Virus record (IMG/VR): IMGVR_UViG_2529292829_000006
Reading direction: 5' to 3' (one strand)
Source of the DNA: a virus
Lineage: Duplodnaviria; Heunggongvirae; Uroviricota; Caudoviricetes
Length of the DNA: 16,346 nt
The notes below the pieces were generated by a model, which saw only the letters and a program-made list of their open reading frames with translations, did no database searches and was not told the origin of the DNA. Made by a program: the position numbers and the translations under genes. Positions within the stretch are counted from its first letter, which is position 1; every line of letters starts with the position of its first letter. This document shows, one piece after another, positions 1,455-16,254 of the stretch.

Positions 1455-1610
1455 TCCCCAAGTCTACTCAAGTATTTAAAAACCTCTTATAATCCGCATG
1501 TTAGCGCCCCTTTTAGTCTTTTGACGTCTACTTAAGTACTCCAAAATCTACAGTCAATTGGGGGTACTTTTGGGGGTATTTGCTGTTCGGTTTAGTGGAG
1601 GTACCCCCAA
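1455..1610. promoter_or_regulatory. attL-proximal repeats: direct repeat GTCTACTYAAGTA (1462..1474, 1526..1538) and TGGGGGTA copies (1559..1566, 1571..1578, inverted 1601..1610); candidate integrase arm-type sites and int promoter region
   Basis: Repeats read directly from sequence between the tRNA 3' end and the int start codon; function inferred from position. Confidence 0.35.
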
Positions 1611-4011: not shown

Positions 4012-4209
4012 ATGTCAAATACGCTTATTCGTTTAACAGAAGTTCAGCGTAGAACTGGATATAGCAAGGCATGGATTTATCGCCTTATGGGGCAAGGTAA
4101 ATTTCCTGCATCAGTTAAAATTGGCTCGCGAGCTATTGCTTTCGTTGAGAGTGAAATTGACGAGTGGATTAATCAGCGTATTGCGGAATCACGCGGAACA
4201 GCTACCTGA
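4012..4209 (+). CDS. alpA: AlpA-family phage/island transcriptional regulator (HTH)
   Basis: 65-aa protein with RLTEVQRRTGYSKAWIYRLMGQGKFP ... ESEIDEWINQR, the characteristic AlpA (CP4-57 regulatory protein) pattern; GAGG ribosome-binding site upstream. Confidence 0.85.
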   Translation: MSNTLIRLTEVQRRTGYSKAWIYRLMGQGKFPASVKIGSRAIAFVESEIDEWINQRIAESRGTAT

Positions 4210-4286: not shown

Positions 4287-5087
4287 ATGAAATTTCCAAA
4301 AATGCCCGTACAGGGGCGGGGCTTCGTTCGGCCTGAAAACCAGAATCTGCAAAATCTCGGCGAAATTATCCCGATTATTTCCGGCGTTATTGGCGGGAGT
4401 GAAACCAATATTGTTAGTGCCAGAGCGTTACATAAGGCGTTAGGTGTAGGGCGCGTTTTCCGTTCGTGGATCAAGGGGCGCATTGAAGAATACGGCTTCA
4501 CGGAAGGCGTGGATTATGAGGTTGTTGAATATTTGAGCCGACCCGATCCGGTGAGCGCAAAATCTCGCCAGCAAACAGCTCTTGAGTACATCATCACCGT
4601 GAACATGGCGAAAGAACTGGCGATGGTCGAACGTACCGAACAGGGCCGCGCCGTTCGCCAGTACTTTATCAAATGCGAGGAGGAGCTACACAAGGTTGCG
4701 CCTGTTCGTTCCGCAGCGTTACGCCGGGAACTGAAAGCCCGTATCACAGTTGCCAGCTACTTTAAGCCAATGTGTGCCGCGCTGGAGGCGTACCGGGCTG
4801 AACTGGGTAAAAACACACTCCAGCACCACTACACCACGGAAGCGAACATGCTGGCGCGTATCGTGCTGGGTGGCATGACTGCAAAACAGTGGGCACTGGC
4901 GAACGGCATTACAGGCGAACCACGCGACCACATGAGCACGTTGCAGCTTGAGCACCTTTCTTACCTTGAGCAGAGCAATATCACGCTGATTGAGTTAGGC
5001 CAGGACTACCACCAGCGGAAGGCTGAATTAATTCGTCTTTCGCAGCGTTGGTTAGCCCGTCGCATGGAGGAAAACAGCCATGTGTAA
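4287..5087 (+). CDS. phage antirepressor-like protein (AntA / KilA-C-type region)
   Basis: AGGAG 7 nt upstream of ATG; segment NIVSARALHKALGVGRVFRSWIKGRIEEYGFTEGVDYEV resembles antirepressor N-terminal domains, and TALEYIITVNMAKELAMVERTEQGRAVRQYFIKCEE resembles KilA-C/ANT regions. Assigned from memory of family patterns. Confidence 0.65.
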   Translation: MKFPKMPVQGRGFVRPENQNLQNLGEIIPIISGVIGGSETNIVSARALHKALGVGRVFRSWIKGRIEEYGFTEGVDYEVVEYLSRPDPVSAKSRQQTALEYIITVNMAKELAMVERTEQGRAVRQYFIKCEEELHKVAPVRSAALRRELKARITVASYFKPMCAALEAYRAELGKNTLQHHYTTEANMLARIVLGGMTAKQWALANGITGEPRDHMSTLQLEHLSYLEQSNITLIELGQDYHQRKAELIRLSQRWLARRMEENSHV

Positions 5088-7385: not shown

Positions 7386-7676
7386 ATGAAAAAGAAAAAT
7401 TCTGGCTTTACTGCCAGCGGCCTCTCTCGGCCTGAAATCCGCCCCGGTGATATTTTCCGGGACACCAGACGCGGGGGACGGGTGGTTATTCGTCACGTTA
7501 CGCCAGGCAATATCACCTACCGCCGTGAGGCTTACGAATATGACTGCGTAATGCCGCGCCGTCAGTTTGATCGTGATTTTATTGTGGTGGAAAACAAACA
7601 ACAGGCAGTGGCGAGACGTGCAGCCACGAATATTAAAAAAATCCGGGCAATGTTGGTTGCGGGAGGTAAGAAGTGA
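7386..7676 (+). CDS. small basic hypothetical protein (96 aa)
   Basis: Stop overlaps the GTG start of the primase/helicase gene (GTGA). Confidence 0.55.
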   Translation: MKKKNSGFTASGLSRPEIRPGDIFRDTRRGGRVVIRHVTPGNITYRREAYEYDCVMPRRQFDRDFIVVENKQQAVARRAATNIKKIRAMLVAGGKK

Positions 7677-9478
7677 AAAACGCACCGAGTCTAAAATATC
7701 AGCCGAAGGATAAATTCACTGAGGTAATCATTTTTGCCGGGATGGATGCTTACGCCCATGCTCAACACTGGATTGAAAGTGAAGGACGAAAACACGGCGA
7801 TAACGTGCCTCCTGTTTACCTGGGGCCAAAGCAACTGGCAGACCTGGCGAATATCCGCATTATTGACGAGAAACGCCGTTTTGCGCGTGTCTATATCGCG
7901 GGGGAGATAGAGCCAATCCAGATCAATACTATCGCTGAAAAGCTGGCGCTGGCTGGCGTACAGGAGGCGAAATTATACAAAGGTATCACCGACCAGGAAC
8001 CGGAGAACTGGCGCGACTACCTGCAACGGATCCGCGAACAGGCTGAGCACGGGGAAGTTTCAGTGATGAAATTAGCTACAAAAAATAGTGGTCTACCCAA
8101 GCCTGCATTAAATCAGATGGGAGCCAGCCAGAGAGGGGAAGTGTTACTTGAACATTATGGAGGAGCACTGGCGATAAATGATGATTCTGATGTAGTTCAC
8201 CATTACAACGGAATTGTTTGGGAGCCTGTATCTGATAAGGAACTCCAGCGGTCTATGGCGAAGATTTTTATTGATGCCGAAATTAGTTATTCGCAAAACG
8301 CCATTAAATTTGCCGTAGAGACAATGAAATTGAGTCTACCTGTTATGGGGGGAGCGGACAGAAATCTTATTGGGTTCAGTAACGGTGTTTTTGATATCAG
8401 GACAGGAAATTTTCGGGAACACAACAAAAATGACTGGTTGTTAAATGCCAGTGAATTACCGTTCAGCCCGCCAGAAGAGGGGGAAACGCTGGCAACACAT
8501 GCGCCGAATTTCTGGAAGTGGTTGCGTCGTTCGGTGGCGGATAATGCTCGTAAAGCGGATCGCGTACTGGCGGCATTATTCATGGTACTGGCGAACCGGT
8601 ACGACTGGCAGTTATTCCTTGAGGTAACGGGGCCGGGCGGAAGCGGTAAAAGTGTGATGGCGGAGATTTGTACCATGCTGGCGGGTAAGGCCAATACAGT
8701 ATCGGCGAGCATGAAGGCGCTGGAAGACGCGAGGGAACGAGCGTTAGTGGTGGGATATTCTCTGATTATCATGCCTGACATGACCCGCTACGCAGGTGAT
8801 GGTGCTGGGATTAAGGCCATTACAGGCGGTGACAAGGTGGCTATCGATCCGAAACACAAAGCGCCCTATTCCACGCGCGTTCCTGCGGTAGTGCTGGCAG
8901 TAAACAATTATGCCATGTCATTCAGCGACCGTAGTGGGGGGATCTCGCGTCGACGAGTAATATTTAATTTCTCTGAGGTTGTACCAGAGAACGAACGCGA
9001 TCCGATGCTGGCGAAAAAGATAGAAGGGGAACTGGCAGTAGTGATTCGCCATTTGCTTACACGATTTGCCGACCAGGACGAAGCGAAAAGACTACTTTAT
9101 GAGCAGCAAAAATCAGAAGAAGCACTGTTGATAAAGCGTGAAGGTGATTCGCTGGTGGACTTCTGCGGTTATCTGATGTCGTTGGTTAAATGTGAGGGAA
9201 TGATAGTAGGTAATGCAGAAATAGTGCCATTTAGTCCGAGGCGATATCTGTATCATGCTTATTTGGCTTATATGTCTGCGCATGGTCTGGGAAAACCGGT
9301 ATCACTGACACGCTTTGGTACAGATATGCCAGGGGCAATGGCTGAGTACGGAAAGGAGTACAAGCGGGCTAAATGCACTAAAGGTCCAGATAAAGGGCGA
9401 ACGATCACAAATGTTCTGTTAGATAAAGATGCTGATGGATGGTTACCAGCAACGGCAGGCATTAACGACAGAACATGA
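7673..9478 (+). CDS. phage/plasmid primase-helicase, P4-alpha-family C-terminal domain (island replication initiator)
   Basis: 601 aa; motif LIGFSNGVFDIRTGNFREHNKNDWLLNASELPF (D5-N / P4-family primase C-terminal signature) and P-loop LEVTGPGGSGKS; iteron array immediately downstream. Confidence 0.85.
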   Translation: MKNAPSLKYQPKDKFTEVIIFAGMDAYAHAQHWIESEGRKHGDNVPPVYLGPKQLADLANIRIIDEKRRFARVYIAGEIEPIQINTIAEKLALAGVQEAKLYKGITDQEPENWRDYLQRIREQAEHGEVSVMKLATKNSGLPKPALNQMGASQRGEVLLEHYGGALAINDDSDVVHHYNGIVWEPVSDKELQRSMAKIFIDAEISYSQNAIKFAVETMKLSLPVMGGADRNLIGFSNGVFDIRTGNFREHNKNDWLLNASELPFSPPEEGETLATHAPNFWKWLRRSVADNARKADRVLAALFMVLANRYDWQLFLEVTGPGGSGKSVMAEICTMLAGKANTVSASMKALEDARERALVVGYSLIIMPDMTRYAGDGAGIKAITGGDKVAIDPKHKAPYSTRVPAVVLAVNNYAMSFSDRSGGISRRRVIFNFSEVVPENERDPMLAKKIEGELAVVIRHLLTRFADQDEAKRLLYEQQKSEEALLIKREGDSLVDFCGYLMSLVKCEGMIVGNAEIVPFSPRRYLYHAYLAYMSAHGLGKPVSLTRFGTDMPGAMAEYGKEYKRAKCTKGPDKGRTITNVLLDKDADGWLPATAGINDRT

Positions 9479-9510
9479 TACGAAATTTATAAGTTGAAAC
9501 TTAAAAGTAG

Positions 9511-9843
9511 ACGGTTGGTAGACAGATACACTTAACCCTCTACCAACCATCTACTAATTAATGTTTTGAATTATATAGGTATTTTTAATGTGGTAGAGAG
9601 GTGGACAGTTTATTTTATATTTCTAAACCACGGGGGTATCTAAAAATAGATAGTTATGGGTTCATTTTTAAAATTTTTCTTTTAACTATCTACACTGTCT
9701 ACCATTTAGTAAAAGTCATTAATTATCAATGTATTAATACTGTAGAGAGTTGGTAGACAGTTTGCAGATTGTTTTTTTGTTATGTATTAATAACATTAAA
9801 TAAATCAAACAATTATATCGGTAGACAGTTGGTAGACAGTTGT
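9511..9843. repeat. iteron-type replication origin: at least six copies of (T)GGTAGACAG(TT) in both orientations flanking an AT-rich tract
   Basis: Copies near 9517, 9540 (inverted), 9591, 9690 (inverted), 9750, 9820 and 9831; AT-rich core about 9600..9740; located directly 3' of the primase/helicase gene. Confidence 0.6.
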
Positions 9844-9847
9844 AACG

Positions 9848-10390
9848 ATGGGGCAAAGCATGACTAAGCTGACCATTAACAGAAAACCGAAAGGCATTTA
9901 CGGCACGCCGCAGAAAACGACGCAGGCGGCGCAGGAGCAGGATAAAACCACATCGGCGCATAAAGTGATGCCCGGTAACCAGAAAGCGCAGCAAAAGCCC
10001 ACAGGGGCGACACCGTGGCGGCATATGACCAAACGCCAGCGCAAAAACCGCAGGCGCGTTAACCGCCTCACTGAGTTGTGGCCTGACTTATTCAGCCGGG
10101 AAGCACCGAAGCCGCTTAAGGTGGGGATATTCGACGACCTGATGCAGGATCTCGCCGTCAGGGGGCTGGCATTCGGGCCAGGGGCATTGCGTGCGACGCT
10201 GGCATCTTATGCGCAGTGTCCGCACTATTACCGCGCCTTAATGGCTGGTGGGGTACGCTACGACCTGAAAGGCCAGCCGTGCGGCGAGGTGACACCACAG
10301 GAACAACAGGACGCAGAAACGCGGCTGGTGGCGCTGAATGAGAAGCGCAAACGCCAGCGCCGGGCAGCAAAGGAGACAATAGGCGCATGA
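9848..10390 (+). CDS. ProQ/FinO-family RNA-binding protein
   Basis: Segment RRVNRLTELWPDLFSREAPKPLKVGIFDDLMQDL matches the conserved FinO/ProQ domain pattern; an alternative start at the ATG 9860 is possible. Confidence 0.7.
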   Translation: MGQSMTKLTINRKPKGIYGTPQKTTQAAQEQDKTTSAHKVMPGNQKAQQKPTGATPWRHMTKRQRKNRRRVNRLTELWPDLFSREAPKPLKVGIFDDLMQDLAVRGLAFGPGALRATLASYAQCPHYYRALMAGGVRYDLKGQPCGEVTPQEQQDAETRLVALNEKRKRQRRAAKETIGA

Positions 10391-10632: not shown

Positions 10633-10809
10633 GGCATTCAGGAAATACCAAAAAAAGAACAATTGTAGTCAGTAACAGAGGATGGGATTCTCTTGGTTTT
10701 TTGTTGATGCTTTCTGAGGAAATCTACTACGTTGCTGAGCAGATGAATATTCAATTGCATCTGGGTTCCTGATAAGATTAATCTGAATATTTTCATTTGG
10801 AATAGGGAT

Positions 10810-11952
10810 ATGAATAAAACTTTAATTGCAACATTAGTCGGTATAGTAATGTTAACCGGATGTGGGCCAGAAGAGTTAACTCCAGAACAGAAACAGGAAG
10901 TAGCGGCTCTTAAAGCTGAACTGTCGCAAACGGAAGGTGAAATATCAGCAGCTAAGGAAGTTGACCAGCAGTTTTCTGGTGGGTTGATAAAAAATCTGAC
11001 AACAGCAAGACTGGAAATATTAGGAACTAATAAAGCGCTTTTGGAACAGCGTATTAATGCTATTGAATCAGGTGCCAAAATTGATGTTGTTGTATCTGGA
11101 GTAAAACCTGATCCTGAGCTTGCGGCTTCAATTAAAACTGAAATTGACAGCTTAGATGCAAAAATCAACGAAGCCAAAGCTGATGCTCGTCAGTATAGTG
11201 GTGGTCTGATAAAGGTACTAAAATTATCTACTGTTGCCACTGAAGAGCAGACCATGGCAATGTTGCAGCAAAAGTACCTCACAGCCAAGTATGGCCTCGC
11301 TGAAGTTAAGCTGGCATCAGTACAAGATAATGACGCAAAAAACAGTACTGAAACGGAAGTAACAGCCAAAAATTCCCAAGGGCAACTTCCTTTACTCCCG
11401 CCAGCGGATGGTCCGTTTGGCTTAGAAGCCGGTCTTACACAGAAAAACATCGAAGATATGATCGGTGCTAAGCTCAAGCCACTACCAGACAGTGTGAATC
11501 TGTATACTTCTGATAAATTACCGAAGCAAAACGCAGATTTTGAAATGTATGGTTTGTTGATCTCCCCGAAAGCTGGTTTATGTCAAATACGGGCTTTAGG
11601 AAAAAATATTGATACTGATAGCTATGGATTGGCTCTTAAATCCAAGTTTGAAGAATTGAGTAATTCTTTAAGTTCTCTGTATGGAAAGGCTGATACTACA
11701 GACTTTTTGCTGGCTGGTTCAATTTGGAAAGATCCTCAGGACTGGATGAGGGGGCTAAACAAAAAAGAACGCTTCTTATCTGCCACATGGAAGGGAACAA
11801 AAGAAATACCATTAAAAAACAATATCGATACTATCTCTATTGAGGCCAGAGCGAACAATTCCACTCAGGGATATGTCTATCTGCAGTACTCATTTACAAA
11901 TGACGAAATTTGTCAGGAAGAAATTGAAGGGGCGAAAAAAAGTTCCCTTTAA
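10810..11952 (+). CDS. lipoprotein (type II signal peptide, lipobox LTGC) with tandem internal repeats; function unknown; AT-rich cargo
   Basis: MNKTLIATLVGIVMLTGC signal/lipobox; two similar ~55-aa segments (QFSGGLIKNLTTARLEILG... and QYSGGLIKVLKLSTVATEE...); SD AGGGA upstream; low GC. Confidence 0.75.
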   Translation: MNKTLIATLVGIVMLTGCGPEELTPEQKQEVAALKAELSQTEGEISAAKEVDQQFSGGLIKNLTTARLEILGTNKALLEQRINAIESGAKIDVVVSGVKPDPELAASIKTEIDSLDAKINEAKADARQYSGGLIKVLKLSTVATEEQTMAMLQQKYLTAKYGLAEVKLASVQDNDAKNSTETEVTAKNSQGQLPLLPPADGPFGLEAGLTQKNIEDMIGAKLKPLPDSVNLYTSDKLPKQNADFEMYGLLISPKAGLCQIRALGKNIDTDSYGLALKSKFEELSNSLSSLYGKADTTDFLLAGSIWKDPQDWMRGLNKKERFLSATWKGTKEIPLKNNIDTISIEARANNSTQGYVYLQYSFTNDEICQEEIEGAKKSSL

Positions 11953-11964
11953 ACAATCCGTGCA

Positions 11965-11992
11965 AAGCCCCTTAGTAAGGGGCTTTTATATA
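11965..11992 (+). terminator. rho-independent terminator (GCCCCT-TAGTA-AGGGGC followed by TTTTATAT)
   Basis: GC-rich hairpin plus T-tract read directly, immediately 3' of the lipoprotein gene. Confidence 0.6.
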
Positions 11993-12016
11993 TTAATGTT
12001 CAACGGGGGGGATTAG

Positions 12017-12340
12017 ATGAAAGATAATCTAGAAAAACTAATTGAAAATACTTTAAAAGATATTCTATTAGCTAATGCTGCTCTAACATTCATTTTTGCA
12101 ATACCAATGGCTATTATCAGTAGGCATGGGATGGGCATCACAATCTGGTTTATAACTGTGCTCATTGCACCTGCTCTGTGTGCAGTAGGTGCATGGCTTG
12201 TATCTCGAACATTCGGCCATGCTGAGGAGTTCTTTCATCGTCGGTGGGCTAAGCGAATCTATGTTTTTTATACTCTTGCGGCTGCCGAGTTTTTGCTTGT
12301 GTACTCAATCGCGCAAATAATGAAAAATCTGATGAAATAA
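12017..12340 (+). CDS. small integral membrane protein (107 aa, about 3 predicted transmembrane helices)
   Basis: Hydrophobic stretches LLANAALTFIFAIPMAII, ITIWFITVLIAPALCAVGAWLV, IYVFYTLAAAEFLLVYSIAQI; GGGGG ribosome-binding site about 8 nt upstream. Confidence 0.65.
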   Translation: MKDNLEKLIENTLKDILLANAALTFIFAIPMAIISRHGMGITIWFITVLIAPALCAVGAWLVSRTFGHAEEFFHRRWAKRIYVFYTLAAAEFLLVYSIAQIMKNLMK

Positions 12341-12529
12341 TTAACAAGTTATTATCATGGGGTTTGTGGCTGTTAACCTGCAGTGAGGCGACAATCGTGT
12401 ATTTATAAAAACTTCCCCTTTTCACTCCCCGCTGTTTCTTCTGCTATTTCCTTTATGTTTGCATGCAGCAACATCTGCCATACCTTTGCAGAAAAATCAG
12501 AGCATTTAGTGCCGAAGGTTGGTTTATTG

Positions 12530-12622
12530 ATGCTTTTTGTTTCATTTATTGCAATTATCGATGGTATTATTTCAATTTGTGCAATAATTGCAATTATTGT
12601 CATTCAGAAGGGATCATCATGA
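12530..12622 (+). CDS. possible 30-aa hydrophobic peptide (MLFVSFIAIIDGIISICAIIAIIVIQKGSS), start-coupled to the downstream gene
   Basis: In-frame ATG within track ORF 12383..12622; GAAGG about 12 nt upstream; stop overlaps the ATG at 12619 (ATGA). Could be a leader peptide or small membrane toxin-like peptide; speculative. Confidence 0.3.
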   Translation: MLFVSFIAIIDGIISICAIIAIIVIQKGSS

Positions 12623-12786
12623 AAAATCACGGAGTAAAGCCAGTTTTACTTTCCCGGGGGCAGATCGAAGCCCTGCAACGTATCCAGGCCGAAAAGCGTC
12701 AGAAATCTGTGCTTGGTGTGGCACCGTCGATTCATGTTATTGCCCGGCAACTGATGGATAAGGCACTTAAAGAGGTGAGGCTGTGA
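12619..12786 (+). CDS. small hypothetical protein (55 aa)
   Basis: ATG at 12619 with AAGGG upstream; MKNHGVKPVLLSRGQIEALQRIQAEKRQKSVLGVAPSIHVIARQLMDKALKEVRL; stop overlaps next start (GTGA). Confidence 0.45.
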   Translation: MKNHGVKPVLLSRGQIEALQRIQAEKRQKSVLGVAPSIHVIARQLMDKALKEVRL

Positions 12787-13055
12787 AATTAAATATCAGA
12801 GTGGATAAACGCCAGCTATGGCAGAAAAAAGAGAACAGCGAGGCATTCAGGGCTTTGCTGGTGGAAAATCTTCGGCACCGGTTCAGTGGAGAGTTGCCTG
12901 ATGCACTGGGGAAGAAACTGGAATCCCTGACGGTGGAAATTGGCGATTATGGCTTTGTTGATGTTGAAAGCACGACTGCCAACACAGAAATCGTAAAGCA
13001 GGTCGTCAATGATGTAATGAAAACCACGCTTAGCCAGCCATCCTGGCGCAACTGA
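12783..13055 (+). CDS. small hypothetical protein (90 aa)
   Basis: GTG start overlapping upstream stop; protein-like composition; weak hairpin (AGGGGC/GCCCCT) downstream at about 13062..13085. Confidence 0.5.
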   Translation: MKLNIRVDKRQLWQKKENSEAFRALLVENLRHRFSGELPDALGKKLESLTVEIGDYGFVDVESTTANTEIVKQVVNDVMKTTLSQPSWRN

Positions 13056-13154
13056 ATCAGTAAGGGGCGGTTATTGCCCCTTTCCTCCATACCCACAACG
13101 CATTCCCTTTTCGCATTAAATTATTTTTTATCGTATATGCATGAGGTGAGCTAC

Positions 13155-13682
13155 ATGTTGATGAGTAAAGCCGAATACGCCAAATACAAAGGCGTAAGCC
13201 GCCAGACAGTTTACGACTGGATCGAGAAAGGCGAAGTGATCATGTCTGGCAAAAAAATTGATGTGGAAGCGACAGAGCAGCGGAACAGCCCACCAGCACA
13301 GGGGAAAGACACCATTTCTGAAATGTGGCCAGAAAGAACGCTGGAAATGACGTGGGGCGAGTTCTGGAAAGCAGTTAAGGCCAGAGGCGGTAAAATTCCT
13401 GCGCCAGCAACGGACGAGGGCATACAGCAGCGTGTGCTGGATGCAGCCGGGGAATTAGGCTGGGAAGTGCACTTTCTTGATGATGGTGCTATCTGCCTTG
13501 AGGATGATGAAGGGCAGCATTACTTTGAAAAATACAATTTGCGAGGTAATGCCAGGCTGGCAATTCGTATGCTGCGTTGCGAACTCTGCTATGTTGCAGG
13601 TGATTATGCCGATGAACTGGAATCATGGAGTGAAGCCGGGCTAAACGCCCTAGCTGAATGGGAAAAATCAGACCATCAATGA
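13155..13682 (+). CDS. HTH DNA-binding protein, terminase-small-subunit-like / packaging-redirection (Rpp-like) candidate
   Basis: N-terminus MLMSKAEYAKYKGVSRQTVYDWIEKGEV is a typical phage TerS/excisionase-type HTH; GAGGTG SD 8 nt upstream of the ATG at 13155 (track ORF begins at 13074); a repeat array follows immediately. Confidence 0.6.
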   Translation: MLMSKAEYAKYKGVSRQTVYDWIEKGEVIMSGKKIDVEATEQRNSPPAQGKDTISEMWPERTLEMTWGEFWKAVKARGGKIPAPATDEGIQQRVLDAAGELGWEVHFLDDGAICLEDDEGQHYFEKYNLRGNARLAIRMLRCELCYVAGDYADELESWSEAGLNALAEWEKSDHQ

Positions 13683-13686
13683 CATC

Positions 13687-13905
13687 AAAAAGTGTCAAGT
13701 TGAGCAGCTTGCCAGGTTGACACTTTACACTCTGAACGCGAAAAAGTGTCAACCTCGCTGTAAGCCGCGCCATTACTGGCCTTTCGCCAGATTTACCACG
13801 TCAAAAAGCCGAAAAAATCGCGAAAAGTGTCAAGTTGCCATGCTTAGAAATGCCAGGGGAGGTTAAGTTTTGTTAAGGTTTTTCCCGAAAAAGTGTCAAG
13901 TGTGT
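13687..13905. repeat. array of AAAGTGTCAA(G/C)YTG repeats including an inverted pair (13689..13726); candidate binding/packaging (cos- or pac-like) site
   Basis: Copies at about 13687, 13717 (inverted), 13742, 13823, 13888 and 13897; read directly from sequence. Confidence 0.55.
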
Positions 13906-14285
13906 CAACCCGCGATATACAGATTTATTAAGGTTTTGAGCCAGAAAGAGTTAACCGCGCCGCTTTAGAAAACTTCAGGCACGCATTTGTGAAAGCATCA
14001 AATGAAGTTCTGTCATACTTTGCAAATCATGCAGATGCATCGTTACTGAGCATTTTAAGTTACAGTTGATGCGGACTGTCCACTTTAACCTTTCAAAACG
14101 TTTCGTAGTAGGTACTAACTAGAATGCCAAGAGTCTTTCAGGTTCCGTGATGTTTAGCGTTGGATTTGATATTAAGTGTTTAAATTCAATGTGTTACATT
14201 GTGTTATAAAGTTTATTGCTAACAACTGTAGGGTAGATGCCAAGCGCACGCTAAGCATGTTATAATCATTTCAACTTTCATAATA

Positions 14286-15281
14286 ATGGATACGAGAGTG
14301 GCGACGATAATCAAAAATATAGCAATCAAAGGTCTTTTTAAACGGAAGGACATTGATTGGAGTTTAAAAGATGTGAATGTTTTAGTGGGTAAAAATGGCT
14401 CAGGTAAGAGCACGATAATTCAAAGTGTTTTTGCCCTCTTAAAACAAGAATTAAATGAAAGTTTAAGTAATGCTGCGTTGGCTCAAATAACATTGGCCAA
14501 TGGAGGCACAATTACTCACAAAGTTAATTTTCGCGAAATTGACTCTGTCCAGCTTCTAAACCTACTTAATAACCTTAAGAAAAACAGTATTAAAGGTAAA
14601 TCAAAGGGTAAGGAAATAAAGGAGTTAAATGAACTTATTGAGTTGCTTGAATCGAAAAAAGAAGACACTGAAATTAAAGAGTTCGGGATGGGAACTGTTA
14701 GCGTAAGTGATAATATTAAAAACACTAAGCGAATAAATGTTGAGTTAATATCAACTATCAATATGAGTGCCAATTCCATCTATGAATTCAAAAAAAGTGA
14801 TGGTGAGCGCACCACAATTCTTGATATGGAAATTGCTGGTGAATTAGAAAGGTTAAAGAATACTTTCAAAGTAAGTGAGTCTAAAGGTATTCTCATAAAG
14901 GATAAGTTGGAATCAGCTATAAATAATTTATTTGCTGAATGTAACAAAGTTGTTTCTTTTAGTAATGGTAACATTTCTATTAAGATGAGTGATTCTGGTG
15001 AAGATATTAGGTATAATCTTCTTTCATCAGGTGAACGTCAGTTGTTATATATTCTGATTAAAACAGCTAATACTTCATTGGATGAATCTGTCTTGTTGAT
15101 GGATGAGCCAGAAATATCCTTGCACCTTACGTGGCAAGAAAGATTAATAAGCACCATCAAATCAATTAACGATAATTGTCAGTTAATTATTGTTACTCAT
15201 AGTCCTGCAATATTAATGAAAGGCTGGATGGATTCTTTCGTAGATATAAAAAATATTTCAAAGGAATCTTCTCATGACTGA
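14286..15281 (+). CDS. ABC-type ATPase (AAA_15/AAA_21-like, OLD/AriA-like), first gene of a candidate anti-phage pair
   Basis: Walker A VGKNGSGKST, ABC signature LSSGERQ, Walker B VLLMDEPE, H-loop IIVTHSP; AT-rich; possible TATAAT at about 14261; an alternative GTG start at 14298 is possible. Confidence 0.85.
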   Translation: MDTRVATIIKNIAIKGLFKRKDIDWSLKDVNVLVGKNGSGKSTIIQSVFALLKQELNESLSNAALAQITLANGGTITHKVNFREIDSVQLLNLLNNLKKNSIKGKSKGKEIKELNELIELLESKKEDTEIKEFGMGTVSVSDNIKNTKRINVELISTINMSANSIYEFKKSDGERTTILDMEIAGELERLKNTFKVSESKGILIKDKLESAINNLFAECNKVVSFSNGNISIKMSDSGEDIRYNLLSSGERQLLYILIKTANTSLDESVLLMDEPEISLHLTWQERLISTIKSINDNCQLIIVTHSPAILMKGWMDSFVDIKNISKESSHD

Positions 15282-16254
15282 GTTTGAGGATATTAATTTT
15301 AGCGAAGAATATCTTCAGGTATATTGTATTATGGCTGGACACAATGGCTTTGTCTTTGTTGAAGGTCTAAAAGACATTTCTTTCTGGGAAGGCTTATTAA
15401 ACGATAAAGATAATGATATACGTTTTGATATTTGTAACCCTACCAATAAAGGAACAAAAGGGAAACCAGTATTAAAAAAATTCATGAGCCGAGCAAATCG
15501 ATATGCCATATTTGCAATGGATAGTGATTTTGATTATTTATGCCCTAAAAACAGTACAGACTCAGAGATAATTTGCAGTAACAAGTTTATTTTTCAAACA
15601 TTTGTATATTCAAAAGAGAGCATCGAGTTACACCATGAAGTCCTTGAGTATTGTCTTTCTCAAATAAAGATCGCTACTGAAATTAAATTCGATTTTACAG
15701 CATACATTACAGAGTATTCACGGTTGATCTACCCCGTGCTGAAGAAATTTTTATTGCTTAAACAGCATCAAGTTAGACTTGATGACTCAGTTTTCCATGA
15801 AGCGATTGCTCCTTCTGTGCCACGATTAACGAACCAATTTGTTATCAAAAATGCTGTATTTGAAAGTATGCAGCAATCTAAAGCGGTTATTGAAGAAAAA
15901 CTTGATAACCTTATTCAAGATGAATACGATGCTGATAAATTCTATGAGCAGTTATATGATAAAGGATTGAGAGAAGATAACGCCTATCAATATATCAATG
16001 GTCATTTTTTAGCTGATAGAGTTGTCATGCCTGTCATAAAATCATTGATAGAGCAATTGAATATTAATGAAACTGCCTTAATAGTCAAACAATGCAAAGA
16101 TAAACCAACCTTAATCTCGGAAAGAAAGAGTGAGCTAAAAAATATTCTTGAAACTGATTTGAATATTAATACGCTATTACACTGTTGCAAAGAAAAGTTC
16201 AAAACTCCTTGTGCTATTGCGATCAAAGAAAATGTAGCTCGAGCTTTAGCATGA
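15274..16254 (+). CDS. TOPRIM-like (DUF4435-type) putative nuclease, OLD/AriB-like effector candidate
   Basis: 8-nt overlap with the ATPase gene (ATGACTGA); N-terminal FVFVEGLKD (conserved Glu) and AIFAMDSDFDY (DxD) in TOPRIM-like spacing; AT-rich. Confidence 0.75.
   Translation: MTEFEDINFSEEYLQVYCIMAGHNGFVFVEGLKDISFWEGLLNDKDNDIRFDICNPTNKGTKGKPVLKKFMSRANRYAIFAMDSDFDYLCPKNSTDSEIICSNKFIFQTFVYSKESIELHHEVLEYCLSQIKIATEIKFDFTAYITEYSRLIYPVLKKFLLLKQHQVRLDDSVFHEAIAPSVPRLTNQFVIKNAVFESMQQSKAVIEEKLDNLIQDEYDADKFYEQLYDKGLREDNAYQYINGHFLADRVVMPVIKSLIEQLNINETALIVKQCKDKPTLISERKSELKNILETDLNINTLLHCCKEKFKTPCAIAIKENVARALA

Follow-up and report, generated by a model that had tools for sequence, protein, structure and literature searches.

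Introduction

The closest described counterparts of the locus considered here, which consists of a gene for a 175-aa winged helix-turn-helix (wHTH) protein and an array of repeats behind it, are packaging-specificity systems of phages and of phage satellites. The locus lies in a 16,346-nucleotide stretch of viral DNA (IMG/VR record IMGVR_UViG_2529292829_000006, Caudoviricetes), in the following called the window, which contains a satellite of the phage-inducible chromosomal island (PICI) type from Escherichia coli. In case of PICIs such as EcCICFT073, a small satellite-only protein of 144-153 aa, Rpp, combines an N-terminal Nu1-like wHTH with a helical dimerisation C-terminus, and its cis site adjoins the gene, with a cosN and a ~90-bp cosB upstream of it and lambda-type cos phages as helpers (Fillol-Salom et al. 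2019, PMC6739421). In the Staphylococcus aureus pathogenicity islands (SaPIs), TerS-SP, which is a true homologue of the small terminase subunit (TerS) of phages, sets together with pac the packaging specificity with a headful helper terminase. Lambda itself has the wHTH protein gpNu1 and a cosB (R3-I1-R2-R1) with three sites of mixed orientation and a bent spacer beside the gpNu1 gene, and the phages P1 and SPP1 possess multi-site pac regions. P4-like satellites, which have the 19-nt cos of P2 as well as psu, delta and sid, have a zone of variable anti-phage cargo, including the defence system PARIS, which in the circular map directly follows the packaging site and precedes int (Rousset et al. 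2022, PMC9122126); their cargo hotspot adjoins cos, and accessory genes likewise follow pac in the SaPIs (PMC11364771, PMC12829572). Many Gram-negative PICIs are scored as incomplete since no TerS, Rpp or cos was found in them, a problem that is discussed in the paper on EcCIMP1, according to which many such islands are without an identifiable packaging module (PMC11773190).

In the island of the window, the wHTH gene and its array fill the slot that is held by cosN, cosB and rppA in the homologous backbone of EcCICFT073. Gene and array are co-inherited across genera and are confined to satellites. We tentatively favour the reading that both together constitute a non-homologous packaging-specificity module of a PICI-type satellite, probably with headful helpers.

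The repeat array

The coding sequence of the wHTH protein (13155..13682, + strand) begins with an ATG that stands 5 nt behind a Shine-Dalgarno-like GAGGTG (13144..13149, + strand), and as all homologues begin with MLMSK, this ATG is supported as the true start. The array begins 7 nt 3' of the stop codon and contains five exact copies of AAAGTGTCAA, at 13689(+), 13717(-), 13743(+), 13824(+) and 13890(+). With one mismatch allowed, no extra copy was found elsewhere in the 16.3-kb window, while the chance expectation for this search is 1.5 matches spread across the whole window. The shorter 7-mer GTGTCAA, with a chance mean of 2.1 per window, occurs six times, and all six copies are inside 13692-13908 (within the 217 bp directly behind the stop). 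The array is real and non-random.

Site 1 (AAAAGTGTCAAGTTG, 13688..13702, +) and the inverted site 2 (AAAGTGTCAACCTGG on the minus strand, 13712..13727) form a perfect 10-bp inverted pair with arms 18 nt apart, and a weak GTGTAAA half-site at 13724-13730 overlaps site 2. Site 3 (AAAAGTGTCAACCTC, 13742..13756, +) is followed by a conserved non-repeat spacer (13757..13822), which separates the proximal from the distal site cluster and contains a short hairpin, CTGGCctttcGCCAG, together with three A-tracts that are ~10 bp apart (13801-13826). The distal cluster starts with site 4 (AAAAGTGTCAAGTTG again, 13823..13837, +), continues with the overlapping sites 5 and 6 (AAAAGTGTCAAGTGTGTCAACCCG, 13889..13912, +) and ends with the degenerate site 7 (GAAAGAGTTAACC, 13944..13956, +), which is intact in sister islands (GAAAGTGTCAACC). 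A secondary repeat, TGTTAAGGTTTT, is present at 13871..13882 (+) and again at 13926-13937, each time 5' of a GTGTCAA-type site, and this motif is also kept in Serratia oryzae. The conserved module has its right edge at about 13956, and the G+C content of the array is 42-48%. A preliminary description of the window had noted about six repeats that start within 10 bp of the stop codon and include one inverted pair, and this agrees well with the five exact, one overlapping and one degenerate copy now delimited. An interpretation of the array as an RNA element or a terminator was discarded, as there is no matching Rfam family and no terminator-like site, and as the copies point in both directions and are unevenly spaced.

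In a blastn comparison of the array with all phages, the sole match was a 41-bp part of the spacer (13754-13794), which is 88% identical (E 2e-3) to a segment of phages encoding Shiga toxin (Stx; L109 4001-4040). About 110 933W-like Stx phages have this segment, among them the O104:H4 phage P13374, and in their genomes it sits in the early-left region, with antB and ORF12 on either side, and not near the terminase. This likeness may be due to chance.

Co-inheritance of gene and array

About 100 satellite loci were compared (102 in the locus counts). Gene and array occur together in about 100 satellite loci of Escherichia, Klebsiella, Pantoea, Rouxiella, Raoultella and Buttiauxella, and the repeats, on whose presence in related islands the preliminary description had made its reading depend, were thus found beside the gene in at least six genera. 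Per locus, there are 3-9 GTGT[C/A]AA cores in the 350 bp after the stop codon, as compared to 0-3 in the remaining 10-20 kb, and 119 sites gave the consensus aAAAGTGT(C/A)AA(C/G)(C/T)tg. The layout recurs as well: site 1 is found 2-30 bp past the stop, an inverted site follows 25-70 bp further on, direct copies come next, and a second site cluster is often located ~100 bp beyond the first. In sister islands, the array takes up the entire intergenic region to the ribosome-binding site of the next gene. Displaced arrays exist in Serratia oryzae, Erwinia and S. aquatilis, where the array lies 1.5-3.7 kb 3' of the wHTH gene; in case of S. oryzae, a 251-aa open reading frame (ORF) on the opposite strand occupies the gap, and the array retains a secondary TAAGGTTTTT motif.

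The wHTH gene shares its operon with two conserved genes for proteins of 55 aa and 90 aa (12619..13055, +). The 55-aa protein appears ribbon-helix-helix-like when its sequence is read but has no family match, and the 90-aa protein has no assigned function. A homologue of the 55-aa gene is present in 71 of the 102 loci, always upstream and on the same strand. As the array is still present in ~19 loci in which the 55-aa gene is not detectable, the array tracks the wHTH gene, and the 55-aa protein is unlikely to be the array binder.

In E. coli, module DNA was found in 167 of 5,426 complete genomes, O104:H4 strains among them. The homology begins in these genomes either at the ribosome-binding site (window 13145-13161; in some of them at the Shine-Dalgarno-like element) or further upstream, and it ends at 13900-13956, beyond which the cargo differs between islands. 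Recombination breakpoints thus flank the gene-plus-array unit on both sides, at 13145-13161 and at about 13900-13956. A D5-type primase gene lies ~5 kb upstream on the same strand in 92 of the 102 loci, and rppA homologues were found in none of them. The module occurs with different integrases and at different integration sites, namely thrW, tRNA-Gly and a prophage capsid gene. Homologues of the wHTH protein were absent from 50,697 phage records and from 72,556 plasmid records, and a phage or plasmid source of the protein was therefore ruled out.

The wHTH protein

The 175-aa protein corresponds to WP_001723131 of strain VTB97585v, which carries the database label "hypothetical protein". Its N-terminal wHTH (residues 1-44, 13155..13286, +) is supported by profiles, alignment and structure model. 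Residues 1-42 match PHROG 57 "terminase small subunit" (E=3.8e-6), PHROG 575 "Cox-like excisionase" (E 1.6e-4), Pfam HTH_17 (E 1.5e-4) and TIGR01764 "excise" (E 1.6e-4), the latter two under the curated cut-off, and the HTH of the terminase-small-subunit or excisionase type that had been recognized in the preliminary description is hence confirmed. Within the family, residues 1-41 are almost without variation; S15, R16, Q17 and Y20 do not vary at all, and T18, V19 and W22 hardly do. A linker (residues 45-60) connects the wHTH to a C-terminal alpha/beta domain (residues 61-175, 13335..13679, +), which is acidic (net charge -11), variable (down to 35-60% identity), specific to the family, and divided into at least three subtypes. 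The invariant HTH, the conserved site and the fast-evolving acidic domain are consistent with a protein whose DNA target on the satellite stays constant but whose partners among the helper proteins change.

An AlphaFold2 model of the monomer, which was calculated from a 40-sequence alignment and has a mean pLDDT of 89, comprises the wHTH (1-44), a disordered linker (45-60) and a confident alpha/beta domain (61-172). The structural neighbours are Pukovnik Xis (4j2n, score 6.9), the N-domain of a TerS (7lxs, 6.3), BldC (6amk, 6.1), the N-domain of lambda TerS (6hn7_B, 6.1), P2 Cox (4lhf, 5.9) and RppC (6hn7_A, 5.6). For the C-terminal domain, structure comparison detected no neighbour in PDB or BFVD.

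Homologues are encoded in Escherichia, Citrobacter, Klebsiella, Pantoea, Serratia, Rouxiella, Raoultella, Yersinia, Enterobacter and other genera. All are unannotated, apart from the source name "Repressor" of two Pantoea members. A survey of helper-embedded satellites (HES) and PICIs placed HTH_17 proteins under "integration" and did not study them further. Outside its own family, the C-terminal domain was found only in one repetitive false positive and in one chimera (P0063, 226 aa, 19 contigs), which consists of the first 136 aa of the island's AntA and, fused to them, the C-terminal ~90 aa of the wHTH protein. This chimera apparently reflects a recurrent internal deletion that takes out most of the island.

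Comparison with Rpp, TerS and other systems

For a direct comparison, EcCICFT073 was located in the CFT073 genome, where the penultimate gene encodes a 144-aa protein with the R21 and T22 known from the published RppA. The two backbones are homologous: identities are 43% for the primase (596 aa), 49% for the DUF4222 protein, 55% for PerC, 36% for AlpA and 25% for Int. In EcCICFT073, perC is followed by captured capsid and decoration genes, by cosN-cosB-rppA, by a small ORF and by attR, and in islands of the wHTH family, perC is followed by a variable late zone, the wHTH gene, the array, a small ORF or cargo, and attR. The shared slot, which comes after perC and the late zone near the 3' end and is followed by a last small gene or cargo and then attR, agrees with the packaging interpretation of the preliminary description, whereas the Rpp/TerS homology on which that interpretation had drawn was not found, nor was a lambda-type or P2-type cosN.

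As to homology, the search was run with the wHTH protein and with its 40-sequence profile, and neither RppC nor gpNu1 was retrieved from PDB, even at E<=10, while a control search with RppA gave RppC (6hlk) at 5.3e-31. BLASTP aligned 35 HTH residues with RppA (10/35 identities, E 0.047), with R16/Q17 opposite R21/T22, and hhalign reported a 24% probability over 29 HTH columns for RppA and 3% for Nu1-type TerS. Outside the HTH, there is no Pfam or NCBIfam terminase match, and the PHROG match is limited to 42 residues. The fold of RppC, a wHTH with a C-terminal helical homodimerisation region, is not that of the wHTH protein. By sequence comparison, therefore, the protein is not a member of the Rpp or TerS families, and what it has in common with them is the wHTH class. 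With regard to cis sites, rppA of EcCICFT073 is flanked by two copies of the lambda cosN, an exact one, GGGCGGCGACCT, 90 bp in front of it and an inverted one behind it, whereas in the window the GGGCGGCGACCT pattern is matched only with three mismatches, as often as expected by chance and never close to the module. No TerS or Rpp family match was seen among the larger ORFs of the island that were scanned, so that, together with the lack of a lambda or P2 cosN, no other packaging determinant emerged.

The likeness to Rpp with its cosB is thus one of organization: a small satellite-only protein with an N-terminal Nu1-like wHTH, matching positions in the recognition helix, a cis site adjoining the gene, and the same backbone slot, the two systems being mutually exclusive among the loci examined. 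In contrast to Rpp, the protein has a globular acidic alpha/beta domain in place of the helical dimerisation C-terminus, its 6-9-copy array lies downstream rather than upstream of the gene, and its helpers are likely phages with a Terminase_3-type large terminase subunit (TerL) rather than lambda-type cos phages. The proposed role resembles that of SaPI TerS-SP and pac, in that a satellite factor would set packaging specificity with a headful helper terminase, but the wHTH protein matches TerS families in the HTH only and has no phage homologue. In case of lambda, the wHTH class, the position of the gene beside the sites, their mixed orientation and the bent spacer are similar, but there are 6-9 sites instead of three, the C-terminal domains are unrelated, and here no nicking site was recognized nearby and no TerL gene follows. 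In function, the module would be parallel to Rpp with cosB or to SaPI TerS with pac, but it does not descend from either.

Two possible proxies for packaging data were of no use. EcCIMP1, an experimentally mobilised PICI at the same thrW site, is without the module, and its data therefore do not transfer; the ends of IMG/VR contigs are uninformative about virion ends because of provirus cuts and assembly breaks.

Sister satellites and candidate helpers

The late zone of sister islands contains captured helper tail and baseplate genes, encoding Dit-like, Pam3_gp18-like, E217_gp41-like hub and gpV-like spike proteins, and no capsid genes (L002 13334-14005, L009 17934-19985, L006 7170-9982, L003 6501-9522). 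They lie between the 55-aa gene and the wHTH gene and stop 7-19 bp before the latter, which closes the late zone, and the variable defence cargo starts right behind the array. The captured genes are 72% identical to rac56 of phage Rac-SA53, and those of L009 are the counterparts of rac54-rac56.

In Klebsiella pneumoniae, the copies (L003-L005) are inserted within the major capsid gene of Mulock-like (Wanchaivirus) prophages, with the junction at L003 ~11669. These copies are helper-embedded satellites, and Mulock-like phages are likely the helper for that branch. The combination of a Terminase_3 TerL with a MuF-like head gene, which is found in Mulock-like phages, is one that we take to indicate the headful packaging type. 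As the motif occurs in neither Rac-SA53 nor Mulock, the array is not a copy of a helper packaging site, and with no motif in the presumed Mulock-like helper, a satellite site would need its own recognition factor. The DUF5681 gene that follows the array in some Klebsiella satellites has no TerS annotation and does not resemble the TerS candidate of Mulock.

At the tRNA-Gly/ygeQ locus, a second small element stands in tandem with the island (L008 25470-33884; L009 1-7873). With its own integrase and genes for a major capsid protein, a baseplate protein and a protein of 610 aa, it may represent a further type of satellite. LR881103 (L025, "Escherichia phage vB_KppS-Ant", 16.5 kb) was deposited as a phage, and its genes are those of a capsid-forming PICI. 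Its last ORF (~60 aa, PHROG 7271) is shared with sister islands, in which it sits between the array and the attachment (att) site.

Possible functions of the module

How could such a module redirect packaging? In the mechanism that we propose, the 175-aa protein would bind, via its invariant N-terminal wHTH, the 14-15-bp sites of the consensus given above. A multi-protein complex would then form on the ~270-bp array, with its proximal inverted-pair cluster, bent A-tract spacer and distal direct copies, and the variable acidic C-terminal domain would recruit the helper terminase, either by contacting TerL directly or via the helper TerS. As a consequence, concatemers of the satellite would be cut and packaged instead of helper DNA, and the cargo zone, which is occupied by PARIS in the present case, would go along. 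The three central elements of this mechanism, i.e. binding of the array by the protein, contact with the terminase, and an effect on packaging, are inferred from adjacency and synteny.

Several observations weigh against this packaging role. The family profile finds no TerS or Rpp, and the C-terminal domain is unlike any oligomerisation or TerL-binding domain of TerS and unlike the dimerisation helix of Rpp. It is the adjacency of gene and sites from which we infer DNA binding to the array, and no terminase cleavage site was identified. There is no known helper for the E. coli island, the genomes of Rac-SA53 and Mulock share no sequence with the array, and the four E. coli accessions of the family are named in no paper of the searched literature.

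What alternatives exist for a role in packaging? As the main rival reading, the protein could be an architectural or transcriptional regulator of the Xis/Cox/BldC type that coats the array cooperatively and, without any role in packaging, silences, insulates or activates transcription where the late operon borders on the small ORF and the cargo genes downstream. Pukovnik Xis, the Streptomyces protein BldC and P2 Cox, which are among the top structural neighbours, bind cooperatively to direct-repeat arrays; the wHTH fold fits a regulator equally well, and the "excise" and Cox-like profile matches, the name "Repressor" of the two Pantoea members, the extension of the array over the whole intergenic region in sister islands and the constant position of variable cargo behind it are all in line with such a function. 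These neighbours, however, are single-domain proteins of ~50-90 aa that act at att sites or promoters, whereas the wHTH protein has an extra 115-aa domain and its sites are far from att. Neither a sigma-70-like promoter nor a terminator is predicted inside the array, here or in one sister island, and a separate promoter for PARIS is predicted 280 bp past the array. Whatever follows it, the array is kept, also where cargo separates it from the gene, and 6-9 sites in 270 bp along with a fast-diverging acidic domain of 115 aa next to an invariant HTH fit a changing partner better than a simple operator. A regulator would also leave the Rpp slot without a packaging determinant. Taken together, we consider a purely regulatory function less likely than the packaging role. 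Another reading, in which the protein is the excisionase (recombination directionality factor, RDF) or an accessory factor of the island integrase and the repeats are its sites, could build on the fold and on the excisionase-type profiles, and the gene indeed lies in the att-proximal third of the circular form. A separate AlpA-family gene (4012-4209) is, however, already present beside int, and AlpA of related PICIs is an activator that has also been described as excisionase (PMC6092414; bioRxiv 2022.07.18.500453). Exchangeable cargo moreover separates the array from the doubled arm motif near attR, which is 2.6-4.1 kb away, three integration sites and different integrases do not fit a site-specific partner, and 175 aa with an extra domain are atypical for an RDF. 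An excisionase role is thus very unlikely, given how far away att is, that an AlpA-family gene exists separately, and that the module is promiscuous towards integrases.

It is also conceivable, albeit improbable, that the module is a helper-interference device, in which the acidic C-terminal domain binds a packaging or late protein of the helper, the reproduction of the helper is blocked, and the array serves only for autoregulation or titration. The domain is acidic, fast-evolving and satellite-specific, as would be expected for such a device, and Rpp itself joins interference with packaging (PMC6739421), but a conserved, co-inherited multi-site array would then remain unexplained, and interference largely overlaps with the favoured packaging role rather than excluding it. 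The iterated sites beside a DNA-binding gene finally resemble the iterons of replication origins or the centromeres of partition systems, and P4 has a second iteron cluster (crr) far from ori. The island, however, has a typical origin directly 3' of the primase gene (9479-9847), which is AT-rich (27-31% GC) and contains about ten GGTAGACAGTT iterons in both orientations, and the array has a higher G+C content of 42-48% and no motif in common with these iterons; homologues are, as mentioned, absent from the plasmid collection. We therefore reject origin and partition roles and regard an auxiliary cis-replication region as a most improbable explanation as well.

If the packaging role holds, the module would be a new, non-homologous version of the satellite packaging device. 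One may go a step further and ask whether a satellite-only wHTH protein with a new acidic effector domain and a private pac-like array of 6-9 sites, serving the terminase of a probably headful (Terminase_3) helper, is a third solution of packaging specificity in Gram-negative PICIs and helper-embedded satellites that arose independently of SaPI-type TerS and of Rpp, a generalization about which we are more doubtful. If true, it would explain the mobilisation of the many "type C" PICIs in which no packaging module is recognisable, along with their defence cargo. With gene and array as the missing packaging determinant, islands scored as incomplete would become predictable, mobilisable elements, one protein and a defined 270-bp cis site would be available for testing, and the way in which defence systems like PARIS shuttle between strains would be explained. 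Should the protein be an architectural regulator instead, the module would still mark a conserved border of a defence-cargo hotspot.

Structure, ends and cargo of the island

The element in the window is a PICI-type phage satellite of ~15.1 kb at thrW, with the int, alpA and primase genes, the origin beside the latter, the uniform gene direction, the tRNA att site and the size (10-20 kb) that are typical of such islands. It is preceded by proA and by the tRNA-Thr gene (1369-1444), and begins with int (1611-2825), behind which an int-alpA RNA (Rfam RF02996, 2870-2937, 45.5 bits) lies between int and the next gene. The AlpA-like HTH gene already mentioned adjoins int, and is followed by the gene for AntA (4287-5087), an Icd-like gene and several small ORFs, a DUF4222 gene, the D5-type primase gene (7673-9478), the origin, and the genes for ProQ/FinO (9848-10390) and PerC (from 10387).

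Strain VTB97585v carries an identical island, in which the attL core, located at the 3' end of the tRNA gene, recurs ~2.9 kb past the wHTH gene, and attR accordingly lies ~320 bp past the end of the window. These repeats at both ends give the island its length of ~15.1 kb and place the PARIS pair inside. Beside both attL (window 1561-1579) and attR (L001 19494-19512) stands a doubled motif, GGGGGTACTTTTGGGGGTA, which is probably the "doubled DNA sequence motif" reported for this integrase clade, representing arm-type sites of the integrase.

The defence-like gene pair that the preliminary description had seen just beyond the repeats, and which would accordingly move with the island, encodes the AriA ATPase (14286-15281, +; PADLOC 2.6e-43, Pfam AAA_21/AAA_15) and AriB/DUF4435 (15274-16254, +; PADLOC 3.6e-22, Pfam DUF4435). 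It is a complete PARIS defence system, carried here as terminal cargo by an island of the PICI type instead of a P4-like satellite. Similar to P4-like satellites, variable anti-phage cargo including PARIS is found beyond the (here proposed) packaging site, but the P2 cos, psu, delta and sid are all absent from the island. At the same place, strain EC11 has an OLD-type ATP-dependent nuclease, and strain 08-00022 has SieB, a glycoside hydrolase and GhoT. A low-GC (34-41%) insert at 10700-12400 encodes a 380-aa lipoprotein and a 107-aa membrane protein, neither with a family match, and possibly represents a second cargo hotspot downstream of pri, like those of Tai systems.

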